Shown here one piece after another: positions 873-31,032 of a DNA stretch of 32,000 nt; position 1 is the first letter of the stretch, and every line of letters starts with the position of its first letter. Source of the stretch: Candidatus Saccharimonadota bacterium (GTDB taxonomy: Bacteria > Patescibacteriota > Saccharimonadia > Saccharimonadales > UBA4665). Below the pieces are notes generated by a model, which was not told where the DNA came from, searched no databases, and saw only the letters and a list, made by a program, of their open reading frames with translations. The position numbers were made by a program, and so were the translations under genes. The DNA lies in NCBI GenBank assembly GCA_003516025.1, contig CP023991.1:721374-753373 (forward strand), written 5' to 3'.

Positions 873-1889
873 TCAGGCGGCCTTGTCCTGCGACTGGGTG
901 CGGGCGATCATCCTCTCGTTGATGTCGTGGGTGTTGGCGACGACGGGCATGTCGAGACCTCTGGAGCTGGCGAGCGCCATGATGGCGATCACCTCTTTGG
1001 GCAGGCACGCACCGGCGTAGGGACCCAGGTTGCGGGTGCCGTACTTCGGGTTGCGCAGCCCTTCGCAGGACACCTCGGAGATCTTGTAGATCAGTGCGAT
1101 CTCCGGGTCGGAGACGCGGTGGAGGCGGCAGAGCTGCTCGAACTCGCGGTTGAAGGCGATGCGGATGCCCTCGAAGAGGTCGGGTGCCGCGAAGACGGCC
1201 TGTATCTGCTGCTCGGTGAAGCCGTTGTCCTCCAGGTGCATGCGCAACTGGTTGCAGAACGAGATCTTCACCGCGTTGTAGACGTTGTGGTGGTACTTCT
1301 GCAGCTCGCCGGCGACGATGGAGGTCCACCGCATGGGGACGCCGAACGGCTCGTAGAGCTTCTCCATGACCTCCACGGAACGAACGTCCTGAGGGTGGTG
1401 GCCGATGGTCACGACCCGGGGGTTGAGGCTGTCAGCCAGCGGGTTCTTGTCGTCCGTCGGGTTCTCCGCACGGAGGTACTCGGGGTTGTAGACGACACCG
1501 AAGTCGACGCCGGCCTTCTTGCCCGAGATGTCCTCCATCTGTTGAGTCAGCTCCCTGGTCATGCCGGGGATCTGGGTGCAACGGAAGACGACGACCGGGT
1601 AGTGGGAGTCGTTGATCCCGCTGAGCTTGTCGGCGATGTCGTCGGCGGCGGCCCGGAGGTAGCTGGTGTCCTGGCCCTGGGGCGTGGACGGGGTCGGCAC
1701 CGAGACGAAGATCAGGTCCACGTGGTGGATGTTGACCTGGTCGGGACGGACGGCGTAGAGGCCGCGGCCCATGAGCTGCCAGATCCGCTCCTGCGAGACG
1801 TCGACGAACGTGACGTCGTGTCCGCGCTGGAGGAAAGCCTGGCCCGTGGCGGAACCGACGACACCGGAACCGTAGATGGCGATGTGCAT
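873..1889 (-). CDS. UDP-glucose/GDP-mannose dehydrogenase family protein (short form, 338 aa), high-GC xenolog with catalytic Cys intact
   Basis: N-terminal Rossmann motif MHIAIYGSGVVGSATG. Central-domain signature GELQKYHHNVYNAVKISFCNQLR. Active-site box YAGACLPKE, with the Cys codon at 1005-1007. RBS AAAGAGG lies 8 nt upstream of the ATG. Third codon positions are almost all G/C, unlike the flanks. Confidence 0.75.
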   Translation of the reverse strand: MHIAIYGSGVVGSATGQAFLQRGHDVTFVDVSQERIWQLMGRGLYAVRPDQVNIHHVDLIFVSVPTPSTPQGQDTSYLRAAADDIADKLSGINDSHYPVVVFRCTQIPGMTRELTQQMEDISGKKAGVDFGVVYNPEYLRAENPTDDKNPLADSLNPRVVTIGHHPQDVRSVEVMEKLYEPFGVPMRWTSIVAGELQKYHHNVYNAVKISFCNQLRMHLEDNGFTEQQIQAVFAAPDLFEGIRIAFNREFEQLCRLHRVSDPEIALIYKISEVSCEGLRNPKYGTRNLGPYAGACLPKEVIAIMALASSRGLDMPVVANTHDINERMIARTQSQDKAA

Positions 1890-2088: not shown

Positions 2089-2117
2089 TTGACTCTCTTA
2101 CAAAAAAATGTTAGTTT
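2089..2117 (+). promoter_or_regulatory. Sigma70-type promoter for the polysaccharide operon (TTGACT-N17-TGtTAGTTT)
   Basis: TTGACT at 2089-2094, a 17-nt spacer, then TGTTAGTTT at 2109-2117. The 10-mer ATGTTAGTTT is identical to the one in the divergent promoter at 2007-2016. Confidence 0.4.
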
Positions 2118-2162
2118 AATGTAAGTTAGCGCTCATTGTTACGCAGGCGCTCGCATATAATT

Positions 2163-3362: not shown

Positions 3363-3389
3363 TTGTCAATAATAGTGTATTGTTATACT
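3363..3389 (+). promoter_or_regulatory. Possible internal extended -10 promoter
   Basis: TTGTCA (3363-3368), a 15-nt spacer, then TGtTATACT (3381-3389). An AGGAG RBS follows at 3411-3415, 9 nt before ATG 3425. Confidence 0.35.
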
Positions 3390-3424
3390 AACTATTCGAC
3401 AAGTATACATAGGAGCAGACCCGT

Positions 3425-5846: not shown

Positions 5847-5850
5847 CACT

Positions 5851-7515
5851 ATGAAGAATAAAACCCCTCAACAGTCTGTCGCAAAATCTAATACAAAGAA
5901 GTTCCGGCGCCTGGGCAACCTTCGCCCGGTAGTACTCATTTTGCTCATTCCACTGGCGGTCGGAGCGTTAACAATCGGAGCTGTTGCGTCCGGTCTGTAC
6001 TACAATAGCGTCGCGCGGTTAGGCAGCGACCGGCTCATAACCCAGAACTGGCAGAGCGCCAACGATTCACTCGCCGCCCAACAACCAAAGTACGAGCGCA
6101 AATTCGCATATTACCAGGTTAAAGCCGGCCAAACCCTGGAAGATCTGTCTGAGTATTTTAGTGTCACCCCCAGCACTCTAGCTTCCATGAATCCGGGCAA
6201 TATTACAACTGGAACGACTGTCAAAATTCCTGCCCTCGAAGCGCCATATACGCCAAAAAACGGCCCAAACGGCCTGCTTGGTACTGCAGCTGTCACTGAT
6301 GAAGCTGGCGTAATCCATATTACGAGTAAGTACGGTTACGGGACACATATCGATACCAATATACCTGAAATTGCCAGTTTCCTGGCGCCATACAATGCGA
6401 TTGAACAGATCAGTCCAAAAGTATTCCGCTTTAACCGTCCAGTTTCAATTGACGGCGACATTCGGATAGACATAACAACCGCTACTGTCAGCCGCATTGA
6501 GCTTCGCAGCGCGCCGAACGACATCACCTGCCTGTGTTTTGACCAGTCAGCCGCATTGATTGACGGCGTTACGATTACTTCTTACGATCCCACAACAAAA
6601 CAAGCCGATGACAACTACTCAGACGGACGCAGTTTTGTGCGCATGAAAAACGGCCGCATGGATACCATAAATACTACTTTCACGCGTCTCGGCAATGGCA
6701 TCGACAGTGCTGTTCCAGGGTCACCATTTTATGGCACACAACAAGACGGCGGCGTCTACGGCGTATCATGGCGTATTTCAAGCATGACGCTGGGGAAGCA
6801 AATTACTACCGGCTGGGTAGAGGGCTCAACTTTTGAACACAACTACTTTGGTGCCTACACCTTTGGTGCCTCAGGCATGCTCTGGAGGGGTAATACATTC
6901 GACGCAAATCACGTATACGGCCTTGATCCTCACGATGACAGTAATAACGCACTCATTGAAAACAATATTTTCAAAAACAATGAAAAGCACGGCTTTATCG
7001 TGTCGAAGCGCTGCAACTACAATATTATCCGTAACAACCTCTCGCTGGACAATAAAGTTAACGGCTTTATGTTACACCAGGACTCAGCCTACAATTTAAT
7101 TGAGAACAACGTCTCAGCTGGCAATACCGATAACTACGTTATTTACGAGTCCAACTACAACACCATTAGTAACAATAAAAGTTATAACGCCAGTTCAAGC
7201 CATATCCGCGTTAATCAATCTTCACACAACACTTTCATAACCGGCAACCAGACATACGGCAATGGACGGGGCATATTCCTTTACGACGGTGTTACAAATA
7301 CGCTAATCAGTCAAAACACTATCCAGGGAAGCGGCAAAAAATTACAGACAAATAACGCTCAGAACACTGTCTTCCTCAATAATAAGGTTAGCGACATTCA
7401 CTATGACATTAATGAAGGCGACCGGATGATTTTCGGCCCGAATACCGCCAAAACTGTCGACATGACCATACCGGCAGACCAGGCTTTACTAACGGCATTC
7501 GAGAAGAAGCAATAA
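5851..7515 (+). CDS. Membrane-anchored LysM + right-handed beta-helix protein, mannuronan C5-epimerase (AlgG/AlgE)-like
   Basis: N-terminal TM segment, then LysM YYQVKAGQTLEDLSEYFSVTPSTLASMNPGNITTGTTVKIP (6109-6231). The block YGLDPHDDSNNALIENN...KHGFIVSKRCN carries the DPHD motif (6925-6936) that is conserved in AlgG. Many NN-x-x-x-N beta-helix turns. RBS AAGGA lies 7 nt upstream. Confidence 0.6.
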   Translation: MKNKTPQQSVAKSNTKKFRRLGNLRPVVLILLIPLAVGALTIGAVASGLYYNSVARLGSDRLITQNWQSANDSLAAQQPKYERKFAYYQVKAGQTLEDLSEYFSVTPSTLASMNPGNITTGTTVKIPALEAPYTPKNGPNGLLGTAAVTDEAGVIHITSKYGYGTHIDTNIPEIASFLAPYNAIEQISPKVFRFNRPVSIDGDIRIDITTATVSRIELRSAPNDITCLCFDQSAALIDGVTITSYDPTTKQADDNYSDGRSFVRMKNGRMDTINTTFTRLGNGIDSAVPGSPFYGTQQDGGVYGVSWRISSMTLGKQITTGWVEGSTFEHNYFGAYTFGASGMLWRGNTFDANHVYGLDPHDDSNNALIENNIFKNNEKHGFIVSKRCNYNIIRNNLSLDNKVNGFMLHQDSAYNLIENNVSAGNTDNYVIYESNYNTISNNKSYNASSSHIRVNQSSHNTFITGNQTYGNGRGIFLYDGVTNTLISQNTIQGSGKKLQTNNAQNTVFLNNKVSDIHYDINEGDRMIFGPNTAKTVDMTIPADQALLTAFEKKQ

Positions 7516-7528
7516 GGGAACCCCCGTT

Positions 7529-8899
7529 ATGGAAGCTACGGCATTATTCTGGAAACGACCGTACACCGATCATACAAAGCGTATGGTGTTGGGTTTATTG
7601 CTGGTAATATTGGGGAGCCTGTTGTTTGTTACCGGTCACAGTGACGCAACGACGGCCGCTTCATGCCAAAAGAGTGTTACCCGCTATGCCGGTACTACCA
7701 ATACCATTTATATCGCAGGTGCCGATGTAGTGTGTACTCCAGCAGACATTCAGGTTATGTATCCGTCAAGCATGAAACACCCAAAAGCACGAACTTTCAT
7801 GCTCAAGTCAAACATCGTACTCCAACAAGGCGCGACACTGATCATTAAAGGCGGAACAGCTTCCGATGCTACCACCGATGAATTCCGTATGATGTCCAAC
7901 AATAATAATATGACCAACAATTTCGTAAACATAACTGCCGATTACGGCACCGTCCATATCACTAATACTAAGGTTAAGTCATGGGATGAAGCTACCAAAG
8001 CCGCCGATACAGAATACGGTGACATATATAAGCGGGCGTTTATACGCGTCCGTTCACGGGCAATCGGAAACGTACAAAACATATCACGTATGAATATCGT
8101 TAATAGCGATATTGGATATTTAGGATATTATGGTGCCGAAAGCTACGGCCTTGCATGGAAAGTCATGGACAGTGCGTTTGATAAAGTGGATGTACTGGGA
8201 AACATTACCAATAGTCGTATCCATAATAACTATTTTGGTGTGTATACCTTTGGCGCCTTCGGTATGGTTATCAATCAAAATGAATTCGATCATAACATTA
8301 AATATGGTCTTGATCCGCACGATGACTCGGATTCATTGAAGATCACCAATAACTCTTCACACCACAACGGTGACCATGGCATTATATGCTCGCAGCGCTG
8401 TGACAACTTACTAATTAGCGGCAATAACTCCTATAGCAATGCCGGGCACGGCATCATGCTGCATCGTTCAGTTGACAACTCAATAATCGAAAACAACACG
8501 GTTGCCTATAACGGCGACACCGGCATCGCGCTGTTTGAAAGTAATCACAATATCATCCGAGGCAATCTGGTAAAAAGTAACAAAAACGGTATCCGCCTGT
8601 CAGTTGGGTCATCATACAATTTATTTGAAAATAATATTATAGAAAAGACTAAAGAAATTGCAATCTACACCTATAAGGGAAGCGACACACCCGTACGTAG
8701 TGATGGTATAAATGCCGGCAATGCCTGGAAGACAAATACCGTTACCGGCACCGGTTTACTGGTACTGCAACTTACTGCTACACATGGTGATCAGTTTAAA
8801 AGTAATAGTTTTGCTGGAAATCCATTAGCCGGTTATGACACCAACCGAGTTACTAACACATCGTTTGTTAGTAACTCAACCGACTTAAACAATCTCTAG
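7529..8899 (+). CDS. Membrane-anchored/secreted right-handed beta-helix protein, second AlgG/AlgE-like C5-epimerase homolog
   Basis: N-terminal hydrophobic anchor MVLGLLLVILGSLLFV. YGLDPHDDSDSLKITNN...DHGIICSQRCDN with DPHD at 8312-8323. It is a paralog of the 5851-7515 product (NNYFGVYTFGAFGM vs HNYFGAYTFGASGM). Confidence 0.6.
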   Translation: MEATALFWKRPYTDHTKRMVLGLLLVILGSLLFVTGHSDATTAASCQKSVTRYAGTTNTIYIAGADVVCTPADIQVMYPSSMKHPKARTFMLKSNIVLQQGATLIIKGGTASDATTDEFRMMSNNNNMTNNFVNITADYGTVHITNTKVKSWDEATKAADTEYGDIYKRAFIRVRSRAIGNVQNISRMNIVNSDIGYLGYYGAESYGLAWKVMDSAFDKVDVLGNITNSRIHNNYFGVYTFGAFGMVINQNEFDHNIKYGLDPHDDSDSLKITNNSSHHNGDHGIICSQRCDNLLISGNNSYSNAGHGIMLHRSVDNSIIENNTVAYNGDTGIALFESNHNIIRGNLVKSNKNGIRLSVGSSYNLFENNIIEKTKEIAIYTYKGSDTPVRSDGINAGNAWKTNTVTGTGLLVLQLTATHGDQFKSNSFAGNPLAGYDTNRVTNTSFVSNSTDLNNL

Positions 8900-8916
8900 C
8901 CGACCGAGCTGTGATA

Positions 8917-8956
8917 ACGTAAAATAGGTCTCATAGAAGACTTATTTTACGTTTTT
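8917..8956 (+). terminator. Rho-independent terminator of the synthase-epimerase operon
   Basis: 15-bp stem ACGTAAAATAGGTCT (8917-8931) / AGACTTATTTTACGT (8938-8952) with one G-U pair that only works on the plus strand. The loop is CATAGA, followed by a T-run to 8956. Confidence 0.75.
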
Positions 8957-8985
8957 GCCAATTAATTTCTCTTATGCTTTATACT
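8955..8985 (+). promoter_or_regulatory. Promoter of the PL7 lyase gene, leaderless layout
   Basis: TTGCCA (8955-8960), a 19-nt spacer (long), then TATACT (8980-8985), then exactly 7 nt to ATG 8993. There is no SD. Confidence 0.4.
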
Positions 8986-8992
8986 ACTGCGT

Positions 8993-9931
8993 ATGAAGTT
9001 CAGCCGTATCCAGATATGTAGCCTGCTAAGCTTTATCGTAATCATATTCCTGATTAGTGCCGTAGCAGTCTACAACAACTATGGCACCATACCATTATCA
9101 CCGGTTACCGTTACCTCACAGAAAATAAATAATCCACAGATTGCAACTCAACCGGCAACATCCCAGACTACTACGAATAAGCAAACTGCACCGCCAAGCG
9201 CTTCCCAGTCTAGTTCCGCCGCCGCCCCATCAGTAGAAATAAAACCTCAGCCTGTACGGCCTGTAATCAATGCGCCATCCCAACTTATTGACCTGTCTAA
9301 CTGGTATGTAACACTTCCAACCGACAATGATGGCAATGGAAGGGCTGATGAAATTCACCAGCCCTCATTGGCAGGCTTCAGTGTGGCACATTATTTTATG
9401 CTTAACGATGCCCGCAATGGCATCATTTTCCAAGCTCATGCCGGAGGCGCTACAACATCAGGCTCACATTATCCACGGAGTGAACTCCGAGAAATGGCTG
9501 ACAACGGCACAGTCAAAGCGGCATGGTCCAATACCAGTGGCAGTCATAGTATGACCGTAACGGAAGCAATTACCCATTTACCATCTGCTAAGCCGGAGGT
9601 TGTAGCGGCCCAGATACATGATGCTAACGATGACGTCATTATGATACGGCTGGAAGGACGGCGCTTATTCGTAGAAAGCGATGATGGGAAAAATAGCGGT
9701 GACCTCGATACAGCCTACACACTTGGCACTACCTTTACAGTTCGTATTCTTGCCGAAAATGGCCACATATACGTTTCATACAATGGCGTAGCTAAAGTTG
9801 ATCTTGCTCGGAGCGGCTCAGGATTCTATTTTAAAGCCGGCTGTTACACGCAATCCAACACTACAAAAGGCGACAGCGGCGATGCGTACGGCCAGGTTAT
9901 TATGTATGGTTTAAGCGTTACACACTCGTAG
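8993..9931 (+). CDS. Polysaccharide lyase family 7 (alginate/polyuronate lyase-like), membrane-anchored with S/T/P/Q-rich linker
   Basis: All three PL7 signature blocks are present. R-S-E-L-R-E lies at 9476-9493, Q-I-H at 9611-9619 and Y-F-K-A-G-C-Y-T-Q at 9827-9853. N-terminal anchor LLSFIVIIFLISAVAV. Confidence 0.75.
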   Translation: MKFSRIQICSLLSFIVIIFLISAVAVYNNYGTIPLSPVTVTSQKINNPQIATQPATSQTTTNKQTAPPSASQSSSAAAPSVEIKPQPVRPVINAPSQLIDLSNWYVTLPTDNDGNGRADEIHQPSLAGFSVAHYFMLNDARNGIIFQAHAGGATTSGSHYPRSELREMADNGTVKAAWSNTSGSHSMTVTEAITHLPSAKPEVVAAQIHDANDDVIMIRLEGRRLFVESDDGKNSGDLDTAYTLGTTFTVRILAENGHIYVSYNGVAKVDLARSGSGFYFKAGCYTQSNTTKGDSGDAYGQVIMYGLSVTHS

Positions 9932-21899: not shown

Positions 21900-23261
21900 T
21901 TATACGGAGTGCGTTGCCGCGTAGCCACTGTTCCATGCGTCAGTAAAGCGAGCGAGGCCGTTCGGTTCACCGGTTTGCCGGTTGACGCCGTTCACCAGCC
22001 GGCGCATTTCGAACATGTCATAACCGTTGGCCATAGCCTGTCTAATAAGGGCTTCCCGGCGGGTTATAAACCAGACCGCAATCCTGGCGGCATTCGCAGG
22101 TTCCAGAGCCAGGTCAGGGTTACTTACGACGTCGATACCGAGTTCATCACGGACGGCGACATAATTACTTTCAAGTGTCAGCTGTATGTAGCCCCGTCCG
22201 TAATATGGCGCGTACCAGGCGTCCTCGCCGTAATATTCACCAATAGGACAGGCGCAGCCGACTTCCGCCGCCAAGTTCGCGAACAGGTACAGTGTCATAT
22301 CGCCATCATCTATGCCTTTGGCGCTAAGCTCCTGCATGACCAGCGTATACATCTGTTCGACATCCTGGCTTTCCGCATGGGGGAACATCTGCCGAACGGC
22401 ATCAAGCGTTAGGGAAGTAACGGTTTCGGCCACCGGTGGAGCGACTTCAGGAGCAGGTTGCGCCTCTGTAACCGGCGCGACTGCTTCAACCGTTGGGCCA
22501 GGGGCGGTCAAAGGTACGGTATAAGCTCCCGCCTCAACATATGTTTGTACTACCGTCGCCGGTTCAATATTATGATTCTTATAAAAGTGATTCGTGGCCG
22601 TGGCCCCTAACGGGAAGTAGCCGCTGTCCCGGGCAATCATACCGCCATCTTCCACCGCCAGGCGGCTATTGGCTGCAACGATCTTGTCACGTAGCGGCTC
22701 ATTGCTATCAAGATAGTCTCCAAGGTTATAGGGCGGCAAGGTATAAACCAGCTCCGGGTCGGGTGTTTCGGCAGTTTTCACTACCGTTTCCGCCGCCAGT
22801 ACGCTTTCGGTTGGTATGCCCGTAAGTTGCGGGTTCCAGGCGTCAATCTGTTCGATGGTCACTTCATGTATGCCGGCAATCGACGACTTTGTTTGGCCAT
22901 CCATGACAAAGCTGTAACCGGAGATGACCGGCGCGGGGACGTTCCAGCACAGTCCGTCTTTCGAAGTTTCCGCGACGTCATTACGGCCTGGATTGGCGGC
23001 AGCAATGAGTGGCTCGGTAATGGTGTACCCACGTTCTGCCGACCATGCTTCCGCGAGATCACTCAGGTTCTTCGGATCGCTCGGCTTGCGGTTAATAACC
23101 AGCTGGTGCTCAAGGTCCGTACAACCATCGGCCGCCGTACCCATTTCTGATGGCATATGCAAATACCCACCCACAATAAGAACACCCGCCGTTACGGCAG
23201 CCAGGCTATCTCTGTGTTCACGCGCGAACGACGCAAATGACAACTCAGTTGATGGGCTCAT
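21900..23261 (-). CDS. Glycoside hydrolase family 19-like cell-wall hydrolase with weak N-terminal anchor
   Basis: The C-terminal YYGRGYIQLTLESNY and NPDLALEPANAARIAVWFI fit the GH19 signature region. The N-terminus is LAAVTAGVLIVGGYL. The start is set to ATG 23261 (AAGGA RBS 6 nt upstream). The track's extension to 23528 runs into the neighbouring high-GC islet and its hairpin. Confidence 0.6.
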   Translation of the reverse strand: MSPSTELSFASFAREHRDSLAAVTAGVLIVGGYLHMPSEMGTAADGCTDLEHQLVINRKPSDPKNLSDLAEAWSAERGYTITEPLIAAANPGRNDVAETSKDGLCWNVPAPVISGYSFVMDGQTKSSIAGIHEVTIEQIDAWNPQLTGIPTESVLAAETVVKTAETPDPELVYTLPPYNLGDYLDSNEPLRDKIVAANSRLAVEDGGMIARDSGYFPLGATATNHFYKNHNIEPATVVQTYVEAGAYTVPLTAPGPTVEAVAPVTEAQPAPEVAPPVAETVTSLTLDAVRQMFPHAESQDVEQMYTLVMQELSAKGIDDGDMTLYLFANLAAEVGCACPIGEYYGEDAWYAPYYGRGYIQLTLESNYVAVRDELGIDVVSNPDLALEPANAARIAVWFITRREALIRQAMANGYDMFEMRRLVNGVNRQTGEPNGLARFTDAWNSGYAATHSV

Positions 23262-23380
23262 AGTATCCTTTATATAACTTGTATTACATGCGATCAGTCG
23301 ACGTGGCCAGCAATAGACGTATTGTTGAACATGCTGAATGATGGAAGAAGTAGCGCACACGCCTTGGAAAGGGCCCGGGT

Positions 23381-23425
23381 GGGCGGCTGCGCGCAAACGC
23401 CAATTGGCTATGCGCGCAGCCGCCC
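23381..23425 (-). terminator. GC-rich hairpin downstream of the 137-aa membrane gene (terminator-like, no U-tract)
   Basis: Perfect 14-bp stem GGGCGGCTGCGCGC (23381-23394) / GCGCGCAGCCGCCC (23412-23425) with a 17-nt loop. It begins 21 nt downstream of the stop at 23446. Confidence 0.45.
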
Positions 23426-23445
23426 CGGGTGTTGCCGGAGATCTG

Positions 23446-23859
23446 TCAGACTGCGACAGGATCGGAATGATCCGAACGTTCCGACCGCTTCGGCCGCTTG
23501 AGCTGACCTCCGATGAAAACCAGGACACCGTAGACCATGATGGCCTCGTGCCGGGTCTCGAGCGCGTAGTACGGCGCGGAGATCAGGGTAGCGGCGGCGA
23601 TGATGCCGACGAAGGACGCGACGAGCGCGATGACGTTCAGCTGGCCGGCGGCCGACTGACGGTTCTTCTTGATCCCCCACATGAAGAGGAGGAGGAAGAG
23701 GAAGCCGGTAGCCAGAGAGGCGATGACCTGCAGCAGGAGCTGCGAGTCAGGCTTGAGGCTGCCCGTCTCGACGTAAGCGAACGCGAAGACGACGACGATC
23801 ACCATGACAGCGATCGAACGGATGTCGATGGAGTTGAAAGAACGACGGAGGAAGGACAT
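23446..23859 (-). CDS. Small integral membrane protein (137 aa, about 4 TM, charged C-terminus), high-GC foreign gene, holin-like
   Basis: MSFLRRSFNSIDIRSIAVMVIVVVFAFAYV... has four hydrophobic spans and a KRPKRSERSDHSD tail. The start is set at the internal ATG 23859, which has a GGAAAGG RBS. Extreme GC3. Confidence 0.6.
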   Translation of the reverse strand: MSFLRRSFNSIDIRSIAVMVIVVVFAFAYVETGSLKPDSQLLLQVIASLATGFLFLLLFMWGIKKNRQSAAGQLNVIALVASFVGIIAAATLISAPYYALETRHEAIMVYGVLVFIGGQLKRPKRSERSDHSDPVAV

Positions 23860-23915
23860 GGTCCTACCTTTCCATGAGGTGTGCGCTGGATGAATGCGGG
23901 TGCATTCAAAGATAC

Positions 23916-23944
23916 ACTTTAACATAAGCTTTACTTTTTGTCAA
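23916..23944 (-). promoter_or_regulatory. Host-type promoter for 23446-23859
   Basis: On the minus strand, TTGACA (23939-23944), a 17-nt spacer, then TAAAGT (23916-23921). It is embedded in AT-rich DNA abutting the high-GC ORF. The leader contains a GAATGC-ACCC-GCATTC hairpin. Confidence 0.45.
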
Positions 23945-24088
23945 TATGTATATGTTTATTAACACTTTCGGCGGATACACTAAAAGACCTTCTATAGAAG
24001 GCAGCCATAGTTATCGCAGTACTACTTTCGTCCTCTTGGACTCATCAGTACGACCGCCCAGTCGTAGAGTAGAAAAATGAGAAAGGGA

Positions 24089-24156
24089 GTGCCAGGCACG
24101 GAGCAGGGGGGGGTAGGTCACGATGATCGTGACATACTTTGCTCCGTGCCCGGCAC
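24089..24156. other. Nested GC-rich hairpin downstream of the 70-aa gene
   Basis: The outer 16-bp stem GTGCCAGGCACGGAGC (24089-24104) / GCTCCGTGCCCGGCAC (24141-24156) has one mismatch. It encloses the near-perfect palindrome GTCACGATGATCGTGAC (24117-24133). Confidence 0.4.
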
Positions 24157-24227
24157 TACAACCTCTCTCCCTGGTCAGTATTAAAAAACGATCCTGCCAG
24201 GACCAGCGTTCCTGCCCATACGGGCGA

Positions 24228-24440
24228 CTACTTGCGCCGACGGTTCCGCACACCCCGGAAGGCGAGGATGAAGAAGCCGATGAACGGCACCAGCAGCACG
24301 ATGGTGAACACCAGCACCAGGATCGACTCCCAGTAGTGGCCATCGTCCCAGTAGTCGTCGAACGCCGTGAGGACCGCGAAGATCCGGCCGACGAAGTCGA
24401 CGATCGGACCAACGATCTCCAGGCTTGTGCCAGTACCCAT
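24228..24440 (-). CDS. Small membrane protein (70 aa, 2 hydrophobic segments, RNRRRK tail), high-GC foreign gene, holin-like
   Basis: MGTGTSLEIVGPIVDFVGRIFAVLTAFDDYWDDGHYWESILVLVFTIVLLVPFIGFFILAFRGVRNRRRK. The start is ATG 24440, with a GGGGGAGAG RBS 6 nt upstream. Extreme GC3. Confidence 0.55.
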   Translation of the reverse strand: MGTGTSLEIVGPIVDFVGRIFAVLTAFDDYWDDGHYWESILVLVFTIVLLVPFIGFFILAFRGVRNRRRK

Positions 24441-24479
24441 ATGTATCTCTCCCCCAGTTGGGTGGATCAGGACCAGAGT

Positions 24480-24508
24480 ATAATACAATATTATTAATTG
24501 TTTTGCAA
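24480..24508 (-). promoter_or_regulatory. Host-type promoter for 24228-24440
   Basis: On the minus strand, TTGCAA (24503-24508), a 17-nt spacer, then TATTAT (24480-24485). Confidence 0.5.
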
Positions 24509-24511
24509 TGA

Positions 24512-24519: not shown

Positions 24520-24531
24520 GGCAATTATACC

Positions 24532-24560
24532 TTGACAACAAGTAAGTAGTACCGTATACT
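24532..24560 (+). promoter_or_regulatory. Transposase promoter inside IRL, leaderless layout
   Basis: TTGACA (24532-24537), a 17-nt spacer, TATACT (24555-24560), then 7 nt to ATG 24568. Confidence 0.6.
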
Positions 24561-24567
24561 GTTAAGT

Positions 24568-25464
24568 ATGAGTCAGAAGTTCACACTTACAGAGTTTTTA
24601 AACCGCTATCCTACTAATGATGCATGTCTTGAGCACATCAAGCAATTACGCTGGGGCTCGGCTACTATTTGCCCAAAATGTGAGCGTAAAAGTAATTTTT
24701 ATAAGGTTAAAGGACGTACTGCCTACGCTTGCCAGTTCTGCGGTCATCACATGTACCCTCTAGCTGGTACTATATTTGATAAATCTTCTACACCGCTTAC
24801 ATCATGGTTTTATGCTATCTACCTCATGGCACAAACTCGGTCAGGTATTAGCGCAAAACAGTTAGAACGTGAACTAGGAGTTACCTATAAGACTGCTTGG
24901 CGTATGTTTAAGCAAATACGCCTGTTATTAAGCGATGACAGCGACATAAACAATTTACAAGGCACTGTCGAAGTAGATGAAACTTATATACACCCTGATA
25001 AAAAGAAAAACACTCGCATTAAGACCAATAGTCGCTTTTACGGTCAGTCCCAAATACTTATGGGTATGGTTGAGCAGGGTGGACGAGCTCGTATTAAACA
25101 CATACAAAGCACCGGACGGCGTGAGCTCATTGGACAAATCAAAGGTAACGTACAAGTATCAGCTACGGTATACTCCGACGGATTCCGTTCATACCGAGCT
25201 CTTCCAAAACATGGTTATACTCACGCTTGGGTAGACCATAAAGCTCATCAGTATCTTGTTGCTGGCATTGGTACTCAAAACGTAGAAAACCTTTGGAGCC
25301 AGTTCAAACGTGGCATGTACGGTGTATACCGCCACTGTGACCCTAAATACTTACAGTCCTATGCTAATGAATATGCGTTTCGCTACTCACACCGCAATAC
25401 TCCAGCACACATGTTTGACCTTTTTCTTGGTCAGATTGCGAGCACGAAGTTTGTTAGGGGTTAG
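24568..25464 (+). CDS. IS1595-family transposase (N-terminal zinc ribbon + DDE domain)
   Basis: CPKCERKSNFYKVKGRTAYACQFCGHH zinc ribbon, an HTH-like ISAKQLERELGVTYKTAWRM, then VEVDETYI followed by a DDE-type core. The product is 298 aa. Confidence 0.85.
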   Translation: MSQKFTLTEFLNRYPTNDACLEHIKQLRWGSATICPKCERKSNFYKVKGRTAYACQFCGHHMYPLAGTIFDKSSTPLTSWFYAIYLMAQTRSGISAKQLERELGVTYKTAWRMFKQIRLLLSDDSDINNLQGTVEVDETYIHPDKKKNTRIKTNSRFYGQSQILMGMVEQGGRARIKHIQSTGRRELIGQIKGNVQVSATVYSDGFRSYRALPKHGYTHAWVDHKAHQYLVAGIGTQNVENLWSQFKRGMYGVYRHCDPKYLQSYANEYAFRYSHRNTPAHMFDLFLGQIASTKFVRG

Positions 25465-26467
25465 AGGCTTTATTTAGGGCTCGATCAAAATCGTCTTCCG
25501 CACCGTTGCGACCGCCTGCGTCTAAGAACTTATGTAGTTTATCGCCGGAGCTCTCTTTAGGAGTATCTTCGACATTGAGATGTAGCTTGGTTTGACTGCC
25601 AAAACGTGGAAATGCCTCGAGCATATGGTCTTCAAACTCTCGCCAGTCTCTAGATATACGCATGAGCACAATAAGTTGGGATAGATGCTTTTCAAGGTTG
25701 GGGTTGCCGACATTTATCGTAAGGAATTGATGATGCTTGTGAGCTCGGTATTTCTTATCATCGAGTACAGGGTTCTTCTTACGGAGCTCCTCAAGTACTC
25801 CGTCAGGTAGGAGCTCGTATACAAGCTGGTTAGTCAGTTTACCGACCTGCTGGTTACGTTTTTGTGTGTGAGCTTTAAACTCCCAGCCTTTGAGCCGGTA
25901 TATCTGTTGGTAAAACTCATTTGGAAACCGGCGTACCCATGGTTGGAGCTCTTCTTCGATATAAGCGGCAAGTATTATTTGGAGCTCATCTTTATCACGT
26001 TCCGCTTGGTAGCCGGTAGCTTCATCAACGAGTGCCGTAATACCGACCTTAGCAAGACTACGGACAATAATTTCACTGGCTACTGCTAAGTGTTGTTGCT
26101 GTTTTACGAGCTTTTCATCGGTGCGGGCTCGAAGATATACATCACATACCTGTGGCAATATATCAGCCTTAAAGCCTTTTCGTACCGTCTTACCGCTCTT
26201 AGACAAGTATTCAAACTCGGTGAGCTCCTTTTGTAAGTCTGCACTGATATAAGGTTGTAGGTTCTGTGCGTCAATAAAACTTGGAAACCCTTGTACACGA
26301 GTAGTTTCGGATAGGGCTCGTCCACGTTTTGTACGTCCGAACGCTCGGAACATGCCGTTTCGGGTTATGACCCGTGAACCGTCTTCAAGTACCGCAACAG
26401 TAAGCGTTACGTTACCTATTTGTAATTTTCCCTCATGTGTAGCCTTTGGTGGCTGCTTGTCGCTCAT
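25454..26467 (-). CDS. P63C domain-like protein (phage-associated), passenger gene of the IS
   Basis: The N-terminal GKLQIGNVTLTVAVLEDGSRVITRNGMFRAFGRTKRG matches my recollection of P63C-domain proteins. GAGGG RBS lies 6 nt upstream. The gene is convergent with the transposase and overlaps it by 11 nt. Confidence 0.5.
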   Translation of the reverse strand: MSDKQPPKATHEGKLQIGNVTLTVAVLEDGSRVITRNGMFRAFGRTKRGRALSETTRVQGFPSFIDAQNLQPYISADLQKELTEFEYLSKSGKTVRKGFKADILPQVCDVYLRARTDEKLVKQQQHLAVASEIIVRSLAKVGITALVDEATGYQAERDKDELQIILAAYIEEELQPWVRRFPNEFYQQIYRLKGWEFKAHTQKRNQQVGKLTNQLVYELLPDGVLEELRKKNPVLDDKKYRAHKHHQFLTINVGNPNLEKHLSQLIVLMRISRDWREFEDHMLEAFPRFGSQTKLHLNVEDTPKESSGDKLHKFLDAGGRNGAEDDFDRALNKASNP

Positions 26468-26493
26468 ATAATACCCTCGCTTAATATGAGCCT

Positions 26494-26523
26494 ATCATAA
26501 CGCAAGGTCTTACTTGTTGTCAA
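26494..26523 (-). promoter_or_regulatory. Promoter of the P63C gene inside IRR
   Basis: On the minus strand, TTGACA (26518-26523), an 18-nt spacer, then TATGAT (26494-26499). It shares the 15-mer TTGACAACAAGTAAG with the transposase promoter. Confidence 0.45.
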
Positions 26524-26552
26524 ACCCTACTTGTCTTGAGGGTATAATTGCC

Positions 26553-26632: not shown

Positions 26633-26709
26633 TGGTGACCCCTGCGGGAGTCGAACCCGCGATTTTCTGGATGAGAACCAGACGTCCTGGACCACTAGAC
26701 GAAGGGGCC
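26633..26709 (-). tRNA. tRNA-Glu (anticodon CUC), CCA encoded
   Basis: The reverse complement GGCCCCTTCGTCTAGTGGTCCAGGACGTCTGGTTCTCATCCAGAAAATCGCGGGTTCGACTCCCGCAGGGGTCACCA folds as a cloverleaf. It has a 7-bp acceptor stem, the D arm GTCT/GGAC, the anticodon stem TCTGG/CCAGA with loop TTCTCAT, and the T arm GCGGG-TTCGACT-CCCGC. Confidence 0.9.
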
Positions 26710-28355: not shown

Positions 28356-29669
28356 ATGACAAAAATAATGCTCGTCGAAGACGATAACAACCTACGCGAG
28401 ATTTATGAAGCCCGCCTGGCAGCCGAAGGCTATGACATCGTCTCCTCCGCCGATGGTGAGGCCGCGCTGGCGCTCGCCTCCAAAGAGCATCCCGATATGA
28501 TTATTTCCGACGTCATGATGCCAAAAATCAGTGGGTTCGAAATGCTTGATATCCTGCGCAATACCGACTCGTTAAAGAACGTAAAGATTATCATGCTGAC
28601 CGCTCTCGGCCAAGCCGAAGACAACGCCCGCGCCAACGCGCTTGGTGCCGATAAGTATCTTGTCAAGTCACAGGTAACCCTGGAAGACATCGTTAAGGCG
28701 ACCCACGAGTTGCTCGACACGCCAGCAGAAGCTGCCGCGGCTCCGGAAGAAACAGCTGTGCCCGAACCGGAGATTACTATTCCAGAGCCAGCTATCGTGC
28801 TGCCGCCCGCCCCTGAAGTAGCTTCAACGCCCGTAGCAACGGCAGAGCCCGAGGTGGTTGCTGCGCCCGCTCCAATGCCTGAGCCAGTGGCTGAACCACA
28901 GTTCCAGCCTGTAGCTACTCCCGAGATTCCGGTCGTCGAACCACCCGCGCAACCTACAGATATTGCCGCGACCATCCAAATGCCGTCAGTACAGTTTTCA
29001 GGCACCGACGACAACGTGGCTACGGCAACCGCGACTGACAACTCCGCGCAGTCTACTGCCGACGAAGAAGCTGCCGTCCAGGCCCAGATTAACGCCTTCG
29101 CGGCAACTGAAGCAGCAGCGCCAGTTCCTGAGCCAGTGGCGCCTGCTCCACAACCCGTTGAGGTTCCCGCGGCCGTCGCTCCAGCGCCCGCTCCAATGCC
29201 TGAACCAGTGGCTGAACCACAGTTCCAGCCAGCACCCGCGCCTGAGATAATATCGCCGGCTCCGGTGGTTCCTCAGCCAGCACAAGTACCAGAACCTGTT
29301 CAGGCCGCGCCAGCGCCCGTAGCAGCAGCCGCTCCACAACCACAGCCCCCGGCCGTGGCACAGCAACCGCAGATGCAAGCCGGGCCGGTAACCTCCGGCG
29401 AAGCGCCGCAAGAAGCAGTCCAGCCAATTCCGGACCAGATCCGAAAGAAGGTTATCGAACCACTGTCAACCGACGCGACGAAGCCGGACATCAATCAGTT
29501 ACTGGCACTTGAAGAAGCTAAAACAGCCGCTCAACAGGCAGCAGCAGCCCCGGTTATACAGCCCGTTCAGCCGGCCCCGGCAATAGCACAACCGCCAGTA
29601 CAGCCCGTACCCGGCCAGCAGCCGCCACAAGCCAATACCGGTATCGATCCACACAGCATGGCATTGTAA
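28356..29669 (+). CDS. Response regulator receiver domain fused to a ~310-aa Pro/Ala/Gln-rich low-complexity tail (no recognisable output domain)
   Basis: The REC domain has MLVEDD, MIISDVMMPKISGFE, LTALG and a K in YLVKS. After about residue 125 the sequence is only P/A/E/V/Q-rich repeats. Confidence 0.8.
   Translation: MTKIMLVEDDNNLREIYEARLAAEGYDIVSSADGEAALALASKEHPDMIISDVMMPKISGFEMLDILRNTDSLKNVKIIMLTALGQAEDNARANALGADKYLVKSQVTLEDIVKATHELLDTPAEAAAAPEETAVPEPEITIPEPAIVLPPAPEVASTPVATAEPEVVAAPAPMPEPVAEPQFQPVATPEIPVVEPPAQPTDIAATIQMPSVQFSGTDDNVATATATDNSAQSTADEEAAVQAQINAFAATEAAAPVPEPVAPAPQPVEVPAAVAPAPAPMPEPVAEPQFQPAPAPEIISPAPVVPQPAQVPEPVQAAPAPVAAAAPQPQPPAVAQQPQMQAGPVTSGEAPQEAVQPIPDQIRKKVIEPLSTDATKPDINQLLALEEAKTAAQQAAAAPVIQPVQPAPAIAQPPVQPVPGQQPPQANTGIDPHSMAL
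28863..28909 (+). repeat. 47-nt intragenic direct repeat, copy 1 (encodes APAPMPEPVAEPQFQP)
   Basis: GCGCCCGCTCCAATGCCTGAGCCAGTGGCTGAACCACAGTTCCAGCC matches 29184-29230 at 46 of 47 positions. The offset is 321 nt, which is in frame. Confidence 0.9.
29184..29230 (+). repeat. 47-nt intragenic direct repeat, copy 2
   Basis: It is identical to 28863-28909 except for one G-to-A difference. Confidence 0.9.
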
Positions 29670-29717: not shown

Positions 29718-30392
29718 ATGCGTTTAAATAAATTCATAGCCGGCGCTACTGGCCTCAGCCGTCGTGCCGCCGATGAGGCAATCGCCCAAAACAGGGTGCT
29801 GGTAAACGGCCATATGCCGTCTGCCGGCCAGCAGGTAATGGACACTGACACGGTAACGCTTGACAGCCTGACTATTACCACGCCTGTCAATACCATAACC
29901 ATTATGCTCAATAAACCGGTCGGTTATGTGGTCAGCCGCGAAGGGCAGGGCAACCGTACGGTATACGATTTGTTGCCAGCAGAACTGCATTCATTAAAGC
30001 CTGTTGGACGCCTCGATAAAGATTCCAGCGGCCTGTTGCTTATGACGAGTGACGGAGACCTGGCGCACCGGCTGACACACCCCAGCTTCCAGAAGACTAA
30101 ACACTACGAAGTTCAACTGGACGCGCCGTTGCAGCCGCTACACCGCCAGATGATCAGCGACTACGGTGTCCGCCTGGAAGATGGGCCAAGCAAATTGCAG
30201 CTGGAACGGTTGCAGGATGGAGACGATACCGTTTGGAGCGTCACGATGCACGAGGGGCGTAACCGGCAGATCCGCCGGACGTTCGACAGCCTGGGCTACG
30301 GCGTCAAAAAATTACACCGTACACGGTTCAGTAACTACTCGTTAGGCCGTTTGGCAAGCGGCACATACCAGACAATACCCCGGGTTAGTTGA
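29718..30392 (+). CDS. Pseudouridine synthase, RsuA/RluB/RluF family (S4 domain + catalytic domain)
   Basis: S4-like N-terminus MRLNKFIAGATGLSRRAADEAIAQNRVLVNG and catalytic motif GRLDKDSSGLLLMTSDG. The product is 224 aa. Confidence 0.85.
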   Translation: MRLNKFIAGATGLSRRAADEAIAQNRVLVNGHMPSAGQQVMDTDTVTLDSLTITTPVNTITIMLNKPVGYVVSREGQGNRTVYDLLPAELHSLKPVGRLDKDSSGLLLMTSDGDLAHRLTHPSFQKTKHYEVQLDAPLQPLHRQMISDYGVRLEDGPSKLQLERLQDGDDTVWSVTMHEGRNRQIRRTFDSLGYGVKKLHRTRFSNYSLGRLASGTYQTIPRVS

Positions 30393-31032
30393 CGGCCTGG
30401 ACAGTTCCGACTTTGGTGAGCAGGATATGAGGGTTGCGGACAATTATAAACTCGGCGGCCACATCCTCGGGGTTTCGTGCTTTACGTAACATCTGCCTGA
30501 TCGACGGCAGCGGCGGTTGTTTGAGTAAAACAGCGTCCGCGTCGCCGTAAAAACCGTGGATTTTATCGACTACAGCTTCCAGGCTGGTAGCCTTGGCCAT
30601 AACAGACCGGCCAGCATGGCGGGCAATTTGCCTGATAGGGCCGCCCGACCATTCACGCAGGTCCAGCAGCCGGTCGGGGCTGGTGTCAAGGTCAACGGTG
30701 TAGGCACCGACAATATCAGATTCGCTCGGCAAACCCTGTACGGCTGGAGGTACGTTATATAAACGCGGGCCGACACCCTTTCCCTGCAGGCTAATAGTCC
30801 GGGCTTCGGCCGGAAGTTGCTGGAACTCCGTGATCGGCTGGACGGTTTGCCGGGTATCAATGCCGCCACTACGGGTGATTGGCACCCCAAACCCTAACAT
30901 ACGGATCGAACCAAAAGCGATCAGCTTTTCATCAACTTCCAGGAAACCGAGCTCAGGATTGTAACCTAAGCGGTCCGAGGAAAAATCCGGTTGAAAACTG
31001 ACTGAATCTACTATCGTTTCTGGCTGTACCAT
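30385..31032 (-). CDS. Hypothetical protein (215 aa)
   Basis: This is the only long ORF in the interval and its composition is backbone-like. No motif was recognised. Confidence 0.5.
   Translation of the reverse strand: MVQPETIVDSVSFQPDFSSDRLGYNPELGFLEVDEKLIAFGSIRMLGFGVPITRSGGIDTRQTVQPITEFQQLPAEARTISLQGKGVGPRLYNVPPAVQGLPSESDIVGAYTVDLDTSPDRLLDLREWSGGPIRQIARHAGRSVMAKATSLEAVVDKIHGFYGDADAVLLKQPPLPSIRQMLRKARNPEDVAAEFIIVRNPHILLTKVGTVQAVN

Follow-up and report, generated by a model that had tools for sequence, protein, structure and literature searches.

Small membrane proteins encoded beside a cell wall hydrolase are known from holin-endolysin systems, such as S of phage lambda and S21/R21 of phage 21. 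Type I toxins, known to be under 60 aa long with one transmembrane (TM) helix, are usually orphan and fast-evolving (hok/sok, AapA1/IsoA1), and the hok and AapA1 toxin mRNAs are inhibited by 5'-3' fold-back. An integron gene cassette carries one ORF, in most cases an orphan, with a conserved imperfect hairpin after it, and such cassettes can form arrays of unrelated cargo with a composition unlike that of the host. Bacterial hammerhead ribozymes are clustered, flank individual variable genes and are found mostly in prophages near integrases, and their role has stayed open since 2011 (Perreault et al. 2011, PMC3088659; review PMC6155905).

The locus described here lies in the genome, about 1 Mb in size, of a member of the Saccharimonadales (Saccharibacteria, CPR), in a stretch of 32,000 nt that was analysed as a whole and is called the window. 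It contains two small genes, ORF70 and ORF137, whose sizes, coordinates, location upstream of a GH19 hydrolase gene and common orientation with it on the - strand are as given by the first-pass annotation. The features of the window are as follows.

26633-26709, - strand: tRNA-Glu(CTC) gene, the conserved anchor of a hypervariable integration hotspot
24520-26552: IS1595-family insertion, with terminal inverted repeats and a target duplication of 8-9 bp
26467-25454, - strand: P63C passenger gene inside the IS1595-family insertion
24568-25464, + strand: IS1595 transposase gene inside the same insertion
24480-24508, - strand: sigma-70-like promoter of ORF70, TTGCAA-17-TATTAT, 9/12 matches
24440 (ATG) to 24228 (TAG), - strand: ORF70, 70 aa, orphan
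24079-24171, - strand: long imperfect hairpin in the ORF70 3' UTR, 18-nt core arms 24157-24140 and 24105-24088, z = -6.0
24022-24072, - strand: type III hammerhead ribozyme, starting 12 nt past the ORF70 hairpin
23987-24002, - strand: terminator-like hairpin with a T-run, downstream of the ribozyme
23916-23945, - strand: promoter of ORF137, TTGACA-17-TAAAGT at 23944-23916, 10/12 matches, TG-extended
23867-23887, - strand: left arm of a 21-nt inverted repeat that brackets the ORF137 islet, including the SD sequence GGAAAGG
23859 (ATG) to 23446 (TGA), - strand: ORF137, 137 aa, orphan, with the C-terminal tail KRPKRSERSDHSD
23376-23430, - strand: strong GC-rich hairpin 3' of ORF137, perfect 15-nt arms 23425-23411 and 23395-23381
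23352-23372, - strand: right arm of the 21-nt inverted repeat, pairing with the ORF137 5' UTR in the predicted mRNA fold
21900-23261, - strand: GH19 gene, 453 aa, with an N-terminal TM anchor, a unique middle part and a C-terminal GH19 domain
873-1889, - strand: islet 1 gene, UDP-glucose/GDP-mannose dehydrogenase family (Pfam), the control for frame calibration

The locus was compared with 80 related loci from Saccharimonadales MAGs, whose Der GTPases are 64-81% identical to that of the window. The order tRNA-Glu, histidine kinase, response regulator, RluA and Der is kept in about 60 of the 80; on the far side of the tRNA-Glu(CTC) gene, the content changes in nearly each of about 40 relatives, and large serine recombinase genes adjoin the tRNA in at least four. 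Because relatives carry such recombinases there, we regard the tRNA-Glu site as an integration hotspot, as had been proposed. Elements with serine recombinases fill the same tRNA-side spot in relatives. GH19, p550, ORF70 and ORF137 are all absent from the 80 related loci. No second copy of the tRNA 3' end was found within the window with up to 3 mismatches allowed, so the definition of an island border by such a direct repeat was dropped; no integrase-family match was obtained among the window proteins scanned, and with neither integrase nor direct repeat the region does not qualify as an intact tRNA-linked genomic island. Phage structural, integrase and regulatory genes were likewise not found in the island that holds ORF70 and ORF137. 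The IS1595 element is inserted 12 nt upstream of the ORF70 promoter, and this P63C/IS1595 insertion is recent and is lacking in a strain variant (L003).

By their sequence features, ORF70 and ORF137 appear to be real coding genes for orphan membrane proteins. Their GC contents at the three codon positions are 0.59/0.37/0.89 and 0.59/0.40/0.83, respectively, which bears out the extreme GC3 noted earlier, since neighbouring genes range from 0.38 to 0.61 (about 0.55); the GH19 gene has a GC3 of 0.58, like the resident genome, and the composition thus sets both ORFs apart from it, in keeping with the suggestion that the parts differ in origin. In public gene calls, ORF137 is uncalled and a 136-aa antisense ORF lies over it. 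We favour the membrane-protein frame over this antisense ORF because of its GC1/GC3 pattern, calibrated on islet 1: the frame of islet 1 confirmed by Pfam (0.62/0.39/0.93) shows the same contrast in GC1, GC2 and GC3 with its own antisense ORF. Islet 1 is a GC-rich extra copy of a dehydrogenase-family gene adjoining a paralogue of normal GC content. Hydropathy and single-sequence AlphaFold2 models predict four TM helices in ORF137, N-in/C-in by the positive-inside rule, and a helical hairpin in ORF70, whose N-terminal helix is amphipathic and is followed by an acidic loop, a strong TM helix and the tail RGVRNRRRK; the C-terminal tails of both are basic. ORF70 is preceded by the SD sequence GGGGGAGAG at 24455-24447, and its sole SNP in strain variant L003 is synonymous.

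Searches for relatives of the two proteins were negative throughout. Neither ORF had an above-threshold match in Pfam, PHROGs or NCBIfam, holin families included, where only sub-threshold hydrophobic noise was seen; profile searches of the kind proposed by the first-pass annotation gave no holin match for either in these three libraries. PADLOC gave no above-threshold match, a word-indexed search of 5.8e9 protein clusters returned only ORF70 itself, and a full HMMER search of 1.84e9 representatives returned no relative of either ORF, its sole match, a repeat protein, being judged spurious. With tblastn, no match at E <= 1 was found in 50,697 phage records, and nothing in plasmids or, for homologues of the two ORFs, in the 80 related loci; a JGI metagenome scan gave no ORF137 homologue, and Foldseek against the PDB with the AlphaFold2 models gave no match below E = 1.

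Both promoter-like sites reported previously, TTGCAA-17-TATTAT and TTGACA-17-TAAAGT, were recovered. The region contains 12 such sites against 5.4 expected, only about twice chance, so the position of these two counts for more than their score. The promoters are AT-rich, and the GC-rich stretches end at the boundaries of the ORFs and their hairpins. A 26-nt motif of the ORF137 promoter is also present in the islet 1 promoter and, with 2 mismatches, in a hammerhead-tailed cassette of two relatives (L089/L125), the promoter/leader motif patterns having been derived from the ORF137 and islet 1 sequences themselves. Islet 1 shares the anatomy of ORF137, with related promoter and leader motifs and a GC-rich hairpin past the stop codon. 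ORF70 and ORF137 are separated by the ribozyme and the terminator-like hairpin, and between ORF137 and GH19 lie about 55 nt of hairpin and 185 nt of spacer; from this sequence layout, the three genes look separately transcribed.

The GC-rich hairpins described in the first-pass annotation fared differently. The one 3' of ORF137 is present as claimed, with perfect arms. The hairpin of ORF70 also exists, with 18-nt arms and a longer extent than the arms alone, and its only G.U pair is converted to A-U by the SNP at 24151 in L003; it is no stand-alone terminator, a hammerhead ribozyme beginning 12 nt further on. An Rfam match to MIR408 over this hairpin was rejected as a generic long-hairpin match, and the idea that the CU-rich spacer pairs with the 5' UTR of ORF70 was dropped, the energy of -12.3 kcal/mol being unremarkable. 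The predicted fold of the ORF137 mRNA has z = -9.3, with a 5'-3' duplex of -32.8 kcal/mol that is strong but not unique, as about 0.5% of all sequence windows would pair with the 5' UTR equally well.

The segment 24022-24072 is, on sequence and covariation, a canonical type III hammerhead whose cleavage is predicted 3' of C24067; it went unnoticed in the first-pass annotation. Stem III, of 5 bp, is open, and stems I and II, of 7 and 4 bp, are each closed by a 4-nt loop. The core reads UACU-C | ... CUGAUGA ... GAAA GUA, every position being canonical (C3 U4 G5 A6 N7 G8 A9, G12 A13 A14, A15.1-U16.1 and H17), and the minimum free energy structure of the sequence is the hammerhead fold. A family model was built from 12 relatives, stems I and III being left out of account in choosing the sequences. 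In this 12-member alignment, the core columns are invariant except N7 (U or C), and the family has A, C or U but no G at H17; 95.4% of the alignment cells are base-paired (35-50% in slid controls), 14 of the 18 pairs are altered on both sides, and compensatory changes occur in all three stems. RNAalifold returns the same fold from an independent alignment. Against Rfam RF00008, the window ribozyme scores 29.7 bits with the whole model, below the gathering score of 48.5, because its stem III is short and its loops are small; the ribozymes of relatives reach 32.6-39.3 bits, and all copies tested fall below the gathering score. With the family-specific model, the window ribozyme scores 72.8 bits.

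This model finds 15 ribozyme copies in 81 Saccharimonadales sources (the window and the 80 loci; 1.32 Mb) and 88 copies in 80 metagenome contigs; in IMG/VR, a single contig fits a relaxed hammerhead pattern. When ORFs upstream of the hammerheads were called naively, virtually every copy had the end of a same-strand ORF 45-230 nt upstream. The conserved block consists of hairpin, spacer and hammerhead, the ORF not being conserved: the cargo comprises about 50 families, unrelated to each other, at 67 loci and exceeds its locus in GC content at 45 of the 56 sites (p = 2e-6, related loci and arrays being counted as independent). In five relatives, the interval between Der and RsuA holds a small cargo gene for a protein with 2-3 TM segments, then a hammerhead, and the combination of small gene, hairpin and hammerhead recurs, with no hydrolase nearby, in the Der-pseudouridine synthase and DprA-TopA intervals and past a tmRNA gene. 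The locus L089, adjoining a tmRNA gene, repeats the promoter-ORF-hairpin-hammerhead anatomy of ORF70, and tandem arrays of four are found in L153 and L155. The small TM cargo proteins of relatives have no detectable homology to ORF70 or to one another. A general link of the hammerhead to small membrane proteins was rejected, most of the metagenomic cargo being soluble and diverse. For the cassettes themselves, we found no mobilisation machinery, target duplication or empty site.

The reading we favour, with a probability of roughly 0.6, is that ORF70 and ORF137 are compositionally foreign, independently transcribed orphan cargo cassettes in a hypervariable region immediately downstream of the tRNA-Glu(CTC) gene, that of ORF70 being ribozyme-tailed. 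The putative first cassette would comprise promoter, ORF70, the 93-nt hairpin, a 12-nt CU-rich spacer, the type III hammerhead and the terminator-like hairpin. Transcription would pass through the hairpin into the ribozyme, which would cleave itself after C24067, so that the ORF70 mRNA would end in a 2',3'-cyclic phosphate behind the protecting hairpin and be uncoupled from downstream RNA. The second would comprise ORF137 with the strong hairpin behind it and, ahead of it, a promoter and leader akin to those of islet 1, the whole being bracketed by the 21-nt inverted repeat; by base-pairing in the RNA, this repeat would tie the 5' UTR and the SD sequence within it to the 3' end and keep translation low. 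Both products would insert in the cytoplasmic membrane as small helical proteins and most likely act as accessory proteins of the envelope, drawn from a gene pool with fast turnover that is common to Saccharimonadales. ORF137 carries no ribozyme tail, and it may belong to the cassette class of ORF70 on the basis of composition, anatomy and two promoter/leader motifs held in common with islet 1 only. More tentatively, we propose that the high-GC islets could represent an undescribed cassette class of Saccharibacteria made up of a promoter, a GC-rich orphan gene and an RNA tail of hairpin, CU-rich spacer and hammerhead, spread among Saccharimonadales in hotspots beside tRNA or tmRNA genes or between housekeeping genes, sometimes in arrays; the ribozyme tail would be its defining signal, for RNA maturation or mobilisation, with ORF70 as a full member and ORF137 and islet 1 as tail-less or decayed ones.

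The first-pass annotation had seen here a likeness to a holin/antiholin-endolysin cassette. On such a reading, ORF70 as holin or pinholin and ORF137 as a second holin or antiholin would gate or activate GH19, possibly in a prophage remnant or a programmed-lysis module. Its description of the proteins is accurate: with two and four helices and the charged C-termini RGVRNRRRK and KRPKRSERSDHSD, they fit the descriptive criteria for holins, which are unspecific and ask for about 60-150 aa, one or more TM domains and a hydrophilic, highly charged C-terminus; ORF70, whose 70 aa hold a weakly hydrophobic first helix and a strong second one, is pinholin-like in outline. ORF70, ORF137 and GH19 are adjacent and co-oriented, phage endolysins (PHROG 181, PDB 4ok7) are relatives of the GH19 domain, the N-terminal TMD of GH19, SLAAVTAGVLIVGGYL, is Gly/Ala-rich and SAR-like, and masking of the SD sequence of ORF137, as predicted, would point to a product that is harmful when over-expressed. 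Against this stand the lack of likeness to holin families or to any protein in the collections searched, the island devoid of phage genes, a separate promoter for each of the three genes with strong hairpins and a ribozyme in between, the difference in composition between the ORFs and GH19, and the modules of small TM gene and hammerhead in relatives with no hydrolase nearby; the P63C/IS1595 insertion is recent and missing from L003. Dual starts, too, are absent: the N-termini read MSFLRR... and MGTGTS..., with no second in-frame start nearby, and the longer upstream ORFs begin inside or ahead of the promoters. In the GH19 protein, the TM anchor lies at about residues 20-35 and the GH19 domain at about residues 316-445, so that some 300 residues separate the two, unlike in SAR endolysins, where a weakly hydrophobic N-terminal TMD is joined straight to the catalytic domain; no orthologue of the whole protein was found, relatives being limited to the C-terminal domain, a first genome scan with GH19 as query gave no match, and the adjacency of the three genes is seen in no relative. 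Neither ORF appears to be co-transcribed with an endolysin inside a phage or prophage, each having its own promoter and hairpin. We judge GH19 not to be functionally coupled to ORF70 and ORF137, which are probably not its export gate either; the GH19 protein has its own signal anchor. A lysis module is thus unlikely, and holin-like action of the two proteins is a minority possibility.

The predicted 5'-3' pairing, with the entire ORF137 mRNA inside it and the SD sequence covered, would also suit toxin-like small membrane proteins of a type I TA kind. The mRNA would be kept inert through fold-back in the case of ORF137 and ribozyme-mediated processing in that of ORF70, and 3' trimming would activate it; both products are hydrophobic and end in charged tails, and their genes are fast-evolving orphans. 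With lengths of 70 and 137 aa and 2-4 helices, the products nevertheless exceed the short one-TM toxins known, the only candidate for an antisense promoter or sRNA is an unconvincing 9/12 site on the + strand at 23237-23266, Rfam and PADLOC returned no match, and the hammerhead-tailed cargo of relatives is mostly soluble and diverse, all of which makes this reading improbable. Saccharibacteria live on actinobacterial hosts, and plain horizontal gain of random membrane-protein genes from a high-GC donor such as this host or its phages, the hammerhead being unrelated, would account for GC3 values of 0.83-0.93, far above those of resident genes, and for a GC-rich dehydrogenase copy at islet 1. 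We find it hardly probable, since no actinobacterial or other homologue came up in any collection searched, the GC-richness stops at the ORF and hairpin edges, the AT-rich promoters have motifs in common with one another and with a cassette of Saccharimonadales, and GC-rich cargo upstream of a hammerhead recurs within Saccharimonadales. Untranslated islets, either structured GC-rich non-coding RNA or decaying foreign pseudogenes, would agree with the missing homologues, the omission of ORF137 by public gene callers and the unusually stable predicted RNA folds; they are very improbable in view of the strong three-base periodicity with GC3 far above GC1 and GC2, the intact frames with SD sequences, the regular TM segments obeying the positive-inside rule, the synonymous ORF70 SNP and the clear ORFs that precede hammerhead tails in relatives.

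Read as orphan cargo cassettes, the islets resemble the clustered bacterial hammerheads (PMC3088659) in the canonical core, the sites between single small genes of inconstant identity and the tandem arrangements, which imply that transcripts are cut into single-gene RNAs. They differ in their location, which is in hotspots on the chromosomes of CPR bacteria, next to tRNA or tmRNA genes or between housekeeping genes, in scoring below the Rfam gathering threshold in all copies tested, in having the ribozyme within a conserved 3' tail of hairpin, CU-rich spacer and hammerhead, and in a cargo that is usually richer in GC than the host, at least some units having their own promoter. Integron cassettes share with them the single, mostly orphan ORFs, the hairpin after each, and the arrays of unrelated cargo of unlike composition; here, however, the hairpins have no attC cores (GTTRRRY/RYYYAAC), there is no IntI gene among the window proteins scanned, the conserved tail is a ribozyme, and own promoters are possible. 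To holins and pinholins with endolysins or SAR endolysins, the likeness lies in small proteins with 2-4 TM helices and charged C-termini and in the co-oriented muralytic-domain gene next door, whereas similarity in sequence or profile, phage context and dual start are lacking, the transcription units appear separate, the adjacency is conserved nowhere, and in the hydrolase, of 453 aa, the anchor and the catalytic domain lie far apart. Pairing between the 5' UTR with its SD sequence and the extreme 3' end, as predicted for the ORF137 mRNA, and the hydrophobic product recall hok and AapA1, whereas the product here is two to four times larger than known toxins and no antitoxin RNA was detected.

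'Holin-like' features and an adjoining hydrolase are thus insufficient ground for inferring a lysis cassette, and host-trained gene callers choose the wrong strand in GC-rich cassettes of this kind. The window points to a large family of hammerheads below the Rfam threshold in Saccharibacteria, in which the ribozymes form a conserved 3' tail on highly diverse, compositionally distinct orphan genes in chromosomal hotspots. With cleavage site, tail module and arrays each specified, the system is defined and testable, and what is at stake is the role of the ribozyme in these ultra-small episymbionts: the setting of mRNA 3' ends, the insulation of cassettes, or the marking of a mobile gene pool.

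The two GC-rich mini-genes for predicted membrane proteins of 70 and 137 residues, ORF70 and ORF137, lie on the minus strand between a tRNA-Glu(CTC) gene and the gene of a 453-residue protein with a C-terminal GH19 domain (GH19).

Features of the tRNA-Glu/GH19 region, in window coordinates
26709..26633, minus strand: tRNA-Glu(CTC) with terminator hairpin
26552..24520: IS1595-family element, transposase and P63C passenger gene (phrog_2384)
24508..24480, minus strand: promoter-like site TTGCAA-17-TATTAT of ORF70
24440..24228, minus strand: ORF70
24171..24079, minus strand: long hairpin 3' of ORF70
24022-24072, minus strand: type III hammerhead ribozyme, 12 nt past the ORF70 hairpin
23944..23916, minus strand: promoter-like site TTGACA-17-TAAAGT of ORF137
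23859..23446, minus strand: ORF137
23430..23376, minus strand: strong hairpin 3' of ORF137
23261..21900, minus strand: GH19-domain gene

The window sequence is identical in two contigs from other samples. The IS1595-family element, bounded by terminal inverted repeats and a target duplication of 8-9 bp, (C)AAGCCACA, sits 12 nt upstream of the ORF70 promoter; a contig from another sample, L003, carries the exact empty site (matching stretch L003 1-727). L003 differs from the window by two SNPs only: that at 24357 affects a third codon position of ORF70 and is synonymous, and that at 24151 turns the sole G.U pair of the long 3' UTR hairpin into A-U. Both preserve function-relevant features of ORF70 and its hairpin.

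A permissive Rfam scan gave a whole-model match to Hammerhead_3 at 24071..24023 with 29.7 bits, below the Rfam gathering score of 48.5 bits. Inspection by eye revealed a complete type III hammerhead with a perfect core, UACU-C / UACGACU-GGGC-GGUCGUA CUGAUGA GUCC-AAGA-GGAC GAAA GUA, and the predicted minimum-energy fold is exactly this three-way junction. The ribozyme lies inside the region that the first-pass annotation had singled out, where it was overlooked. A pattern scan of 80 related loci recovered 11 further hammerheads of the same architecture. In the alignment of all 12, the catalytic core is invariant except for N7, and position 17 is never G. Pairing holds in 95% of the alignment cells, as compared with 35-50% in slid controls, with changes on both sides in 14 of 18 pairs; stems I and III played no part in selecting the copies. 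RNAalifold recovered the same fold from an independent alignment.

Within 1.32 Mb of Saccharimonadales DNA the covariance model detected 15 copies, and it detected 88 across 80 metagenome loci that had been retrieved with an exact subfamily pattern. In IMG/VR, two hammerhead patterns were without match, and a relaxed pattern hit one phage contig only. All copies tested score 30-39 bits with the Rfam model and have therefore been overlooked by routine annotation. Our literature search found no paper connecting hammerheads with Saccharibacteria or Patescibacteria.

Nearly all copies for which enough upstream sequence is available are preceded by an ORF on the same strand that ends 45-230 nt before the ribozyme; these ORFs were called naively and most exceed 100 aa. 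Their products fall into about 50 unrelated, mostly orphan-like families over 67 loci. Two loci carry arrays of four ORF-plus-hammerhead units (L153 1278-3935, plus strand, between TopA and a sigma-70-type gene; L155 1496-3304, minus strand), made up of small orphan ORFs each followed by a hammerhead after about 100 nt. A near-identical 150-nt block composed of hairpin, CU-rich spacer and hammerhead, which stops about 5 nt past stem III, is common to two cassettes with related cargo that occupy different loci in two genomes; their coding parts are far more diverged. Over the 400 nt preceding the ribozyme, GC content exceeds that of the remaining locus at 45 of 56 sites (a median of +6.6 points; Wilcoxon p = 2e-6, a statistic inflated to some degree because related loci and arrays are not independent) and falls into the top decile at 31. 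Such a high-GC single-gene islet is thus a common property of the hammerhead-tailed module. The recurrence of the ORF-hairpin-ribozyme anatomy in relatives makes ORF70, with its hairpin and ribozyme, a typical member. In the DprA-TopA interval of two relatives (L024 14968-15300 and L069 7143-7420, both plus strand), a small membrane protein gene follows the hammerhead after 18-55 nt; the two proteins, of 74-93 aa, are conserved (E = 4e-19 to each other), and the ribozyme here belongs both to the tail of the preceding gene and to the 5' UTR of the one that follows.

The first-pass annotation had placed the block at a tRNA-Glu integration hotspot. The Der GTPase adjoining the window is 64-81% identical to those of 80 Saccharimonadales MAGs, about 60 of which keep the order tRNA-Glu(CTC), histidine kinase, response regulator, RluA and Der; the sequence beyond the tRNA differs in nearly all genomes compared. 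In four relatives (L010, L016, L071, L083), the first ~1.7 kb downstream hold a large serine recombinase gene, with Resolvase, Recombinase and Zn-ribbon domains, whose 3' end runs into the tRNA; in Saccharimonadales, tRNA-Glu(CTC) therefore serves integrative elements as an attachment site. The hotspot reading thus holds, but the window itself contains no integrase and no repeated tRNA end. The interval between the pseudouridine synthase gene (RluA) and Der forms a second variable slot, occupied in the window by an orphan 215-aa gene (30385-31032, minus strand). Among relatives (L009, L024, L045, L050, L053, L063), five have a gene for a protein of 70-110 aa with 2-3 TM helices and a hammerhead about 150-215 nt downstream, and one combines a soluble 132-aa cargo with a hammerhead; similarity among the five membrane proteins was not detectable.

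The compositional contrast reported at first pass is confirmed, with GC3 values of 0.89 for ORF70 and 0.83 for ORF137 against 0.38-0.61 in neighbouring genes, and the AT-rich promoter-like sites and GC-rich hairpins described for both are indeed present. In the membrane-protein frames, GC1/2/3 is about 0.59/0.40/0.83-0.89, the usual order in GC-rich genes; in the antisense frames, GC1 is 0.72-0.84 and GC3 is 0.57. As a control we used islet 1 (873..1889, minus strand), a GC-rich gene of the UDP-glucose dehydrogenase family, whose Pfam-confirmed frame gives 0.62/0.39/0.93 as against 0.90/0.39/0.63 for the long antisense ORF overlying it (855-1940, plus strand; at 361 aa longer than the real 338-aa gene). 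The public gene call at ORF137 is likewise a 136-aa ORF on the antisense strand (23467-23877, plus strand), which is why ORF137 is missing from protein databases. Both ORFs are preceded by an SD sequence. ORF137 is predicted to have four hydrophobic helices in an N-in/C-in arrangement, with Arg/Lys in every other loop, and ORF70 to form a helical hairpin whose loop is acidic and whose C-terminus bears six basic residues. It is highly probable that both are real coding genes. A local GC peak (0.61-0.67 at 28800-29400) was also seen within a 437-aa response-regulator-domain gene (28356-29669), whose GC1 of 0.74 suggests a low-complexity C-terminal region.

The family covariance model finds no ribozyme at ORF137 or islet 1. 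In both, a promoter is followed by a GC-rich ORF and then a GC-rich hairpin, and within the window they alone carry two motifs in the same order, ATTGACAnAAAnnnAAnnnTATGTTA and AATsCACCCGCAkTsATC; this evidence is suggestive only, because the patterns were derived from these very sequences.

Positions of the two motifs, in the order named
2011-2036 and 1909-1926, minus strand: islet 1
23920-23945 and 23889-23906, minus strand: ORF137

The promoter motif recurs with two mismatches directly after the tmRNA gene in L089/L125 (L089 9969-9994, minus strand), where a TTGACA promoter, leader hairpin, SD and 317-aa GC-rich ORF are followed by hairpin, spacer and hammerhead. A 21-nt inverted repeat (23887-23867 / 23372-23352; 18/21 complementary), unique in the window, flanks the ORF137 islet on both sides and, according to the predicted mRNA fold (z = -9.3), encloses the entire transcript and covers the SD. 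Its duplex, at -32.8 kcal/mol, ranks near the 0.5 percentile of all windows and is notable by position, not by strength. Islet 1 belongs to a surface-polysaccharide-type gene set (873-9931) that further includes, next to it, a paralogue of normal GC content (3425-4249), as well as genes for a GT2-LysM protein, for three beta-helix proteins (one DUF1565, two NosD-type) and for a member of the alginate lyase family.

The first-pass annotation likened ORF70, ORF137 and GH19 to a holin/antiholin-endolysin cassette. Membrane proteins of foreign composition at a hotspot remain from that interpretation; their coupling to the hydrolase does not. Both ORFs fit the descriptive outline of holins, which is unspecific, and that of ORF70 is pinholin-like; the N-terminal TMD of GH19 is Gly/Ala-rich (SAR-like), and the predicted SD masking of ORF137 hints at a product harmful in excess. 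However, the three genes form separate promoter-bearing units with hairpins and a ribozyme between them, ORF70 and ORF137 differ in composition from GH19, neither phage context nor a dual start was found, and the ORF70-type module occurs elsewhere without any hydrolase. GH19 has its own N-terminal anchor and is lineage-specific, only its last ~110-130 residues matching GH19 chitinases and endolysins. Nor is there similarity to any holin family: searches against Pfam, PHROGs, NCBIfam and PADLOC returned sub-threshold hydrophobic noise only. The sole match among 5.8e9 clusters was ORF70 itself, exhaustive HMMER against 1.84e9 representatives hit a single repeat protein judged spurious, tblastn against phages and plasmids, 80 related genome loci and JGI metagenomes gave no match, and Foldseek with a low-confidence ORF137 model gave nothing below E = 1. 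A holin or pinholin role alongside GH19 is accordingly improbable, and a toxin-like role of ORF70 and ORF137 slightly more so.

The closest described system is that of the clustered bacterial hammerheads, which flank individual genes of inconstant identity and are believed to process long transcripts into single-gene RNAs (Perreault et al. 2011, PMC3088659); according to a 2017 review, which stresses the phage link, the bacterial role is still open (PMC6155905). The Saccharimonadales copies resemble them in the ribozyme, the variable single genes and the arrays. They differ in their CPR host, in residing in chromosomal hotspots rather than recognisable prophages, in a conserved 3' tail module, in compositionally distinct cargo and in sub-threshold Rfam scores. 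That hammerhead-tailed cassettes constitute a class of their own is a tentative proposal, to which we assign a probability of about 0.35. What is new in substance is the hammerhead tail, together with the cassette family that this tail would define.
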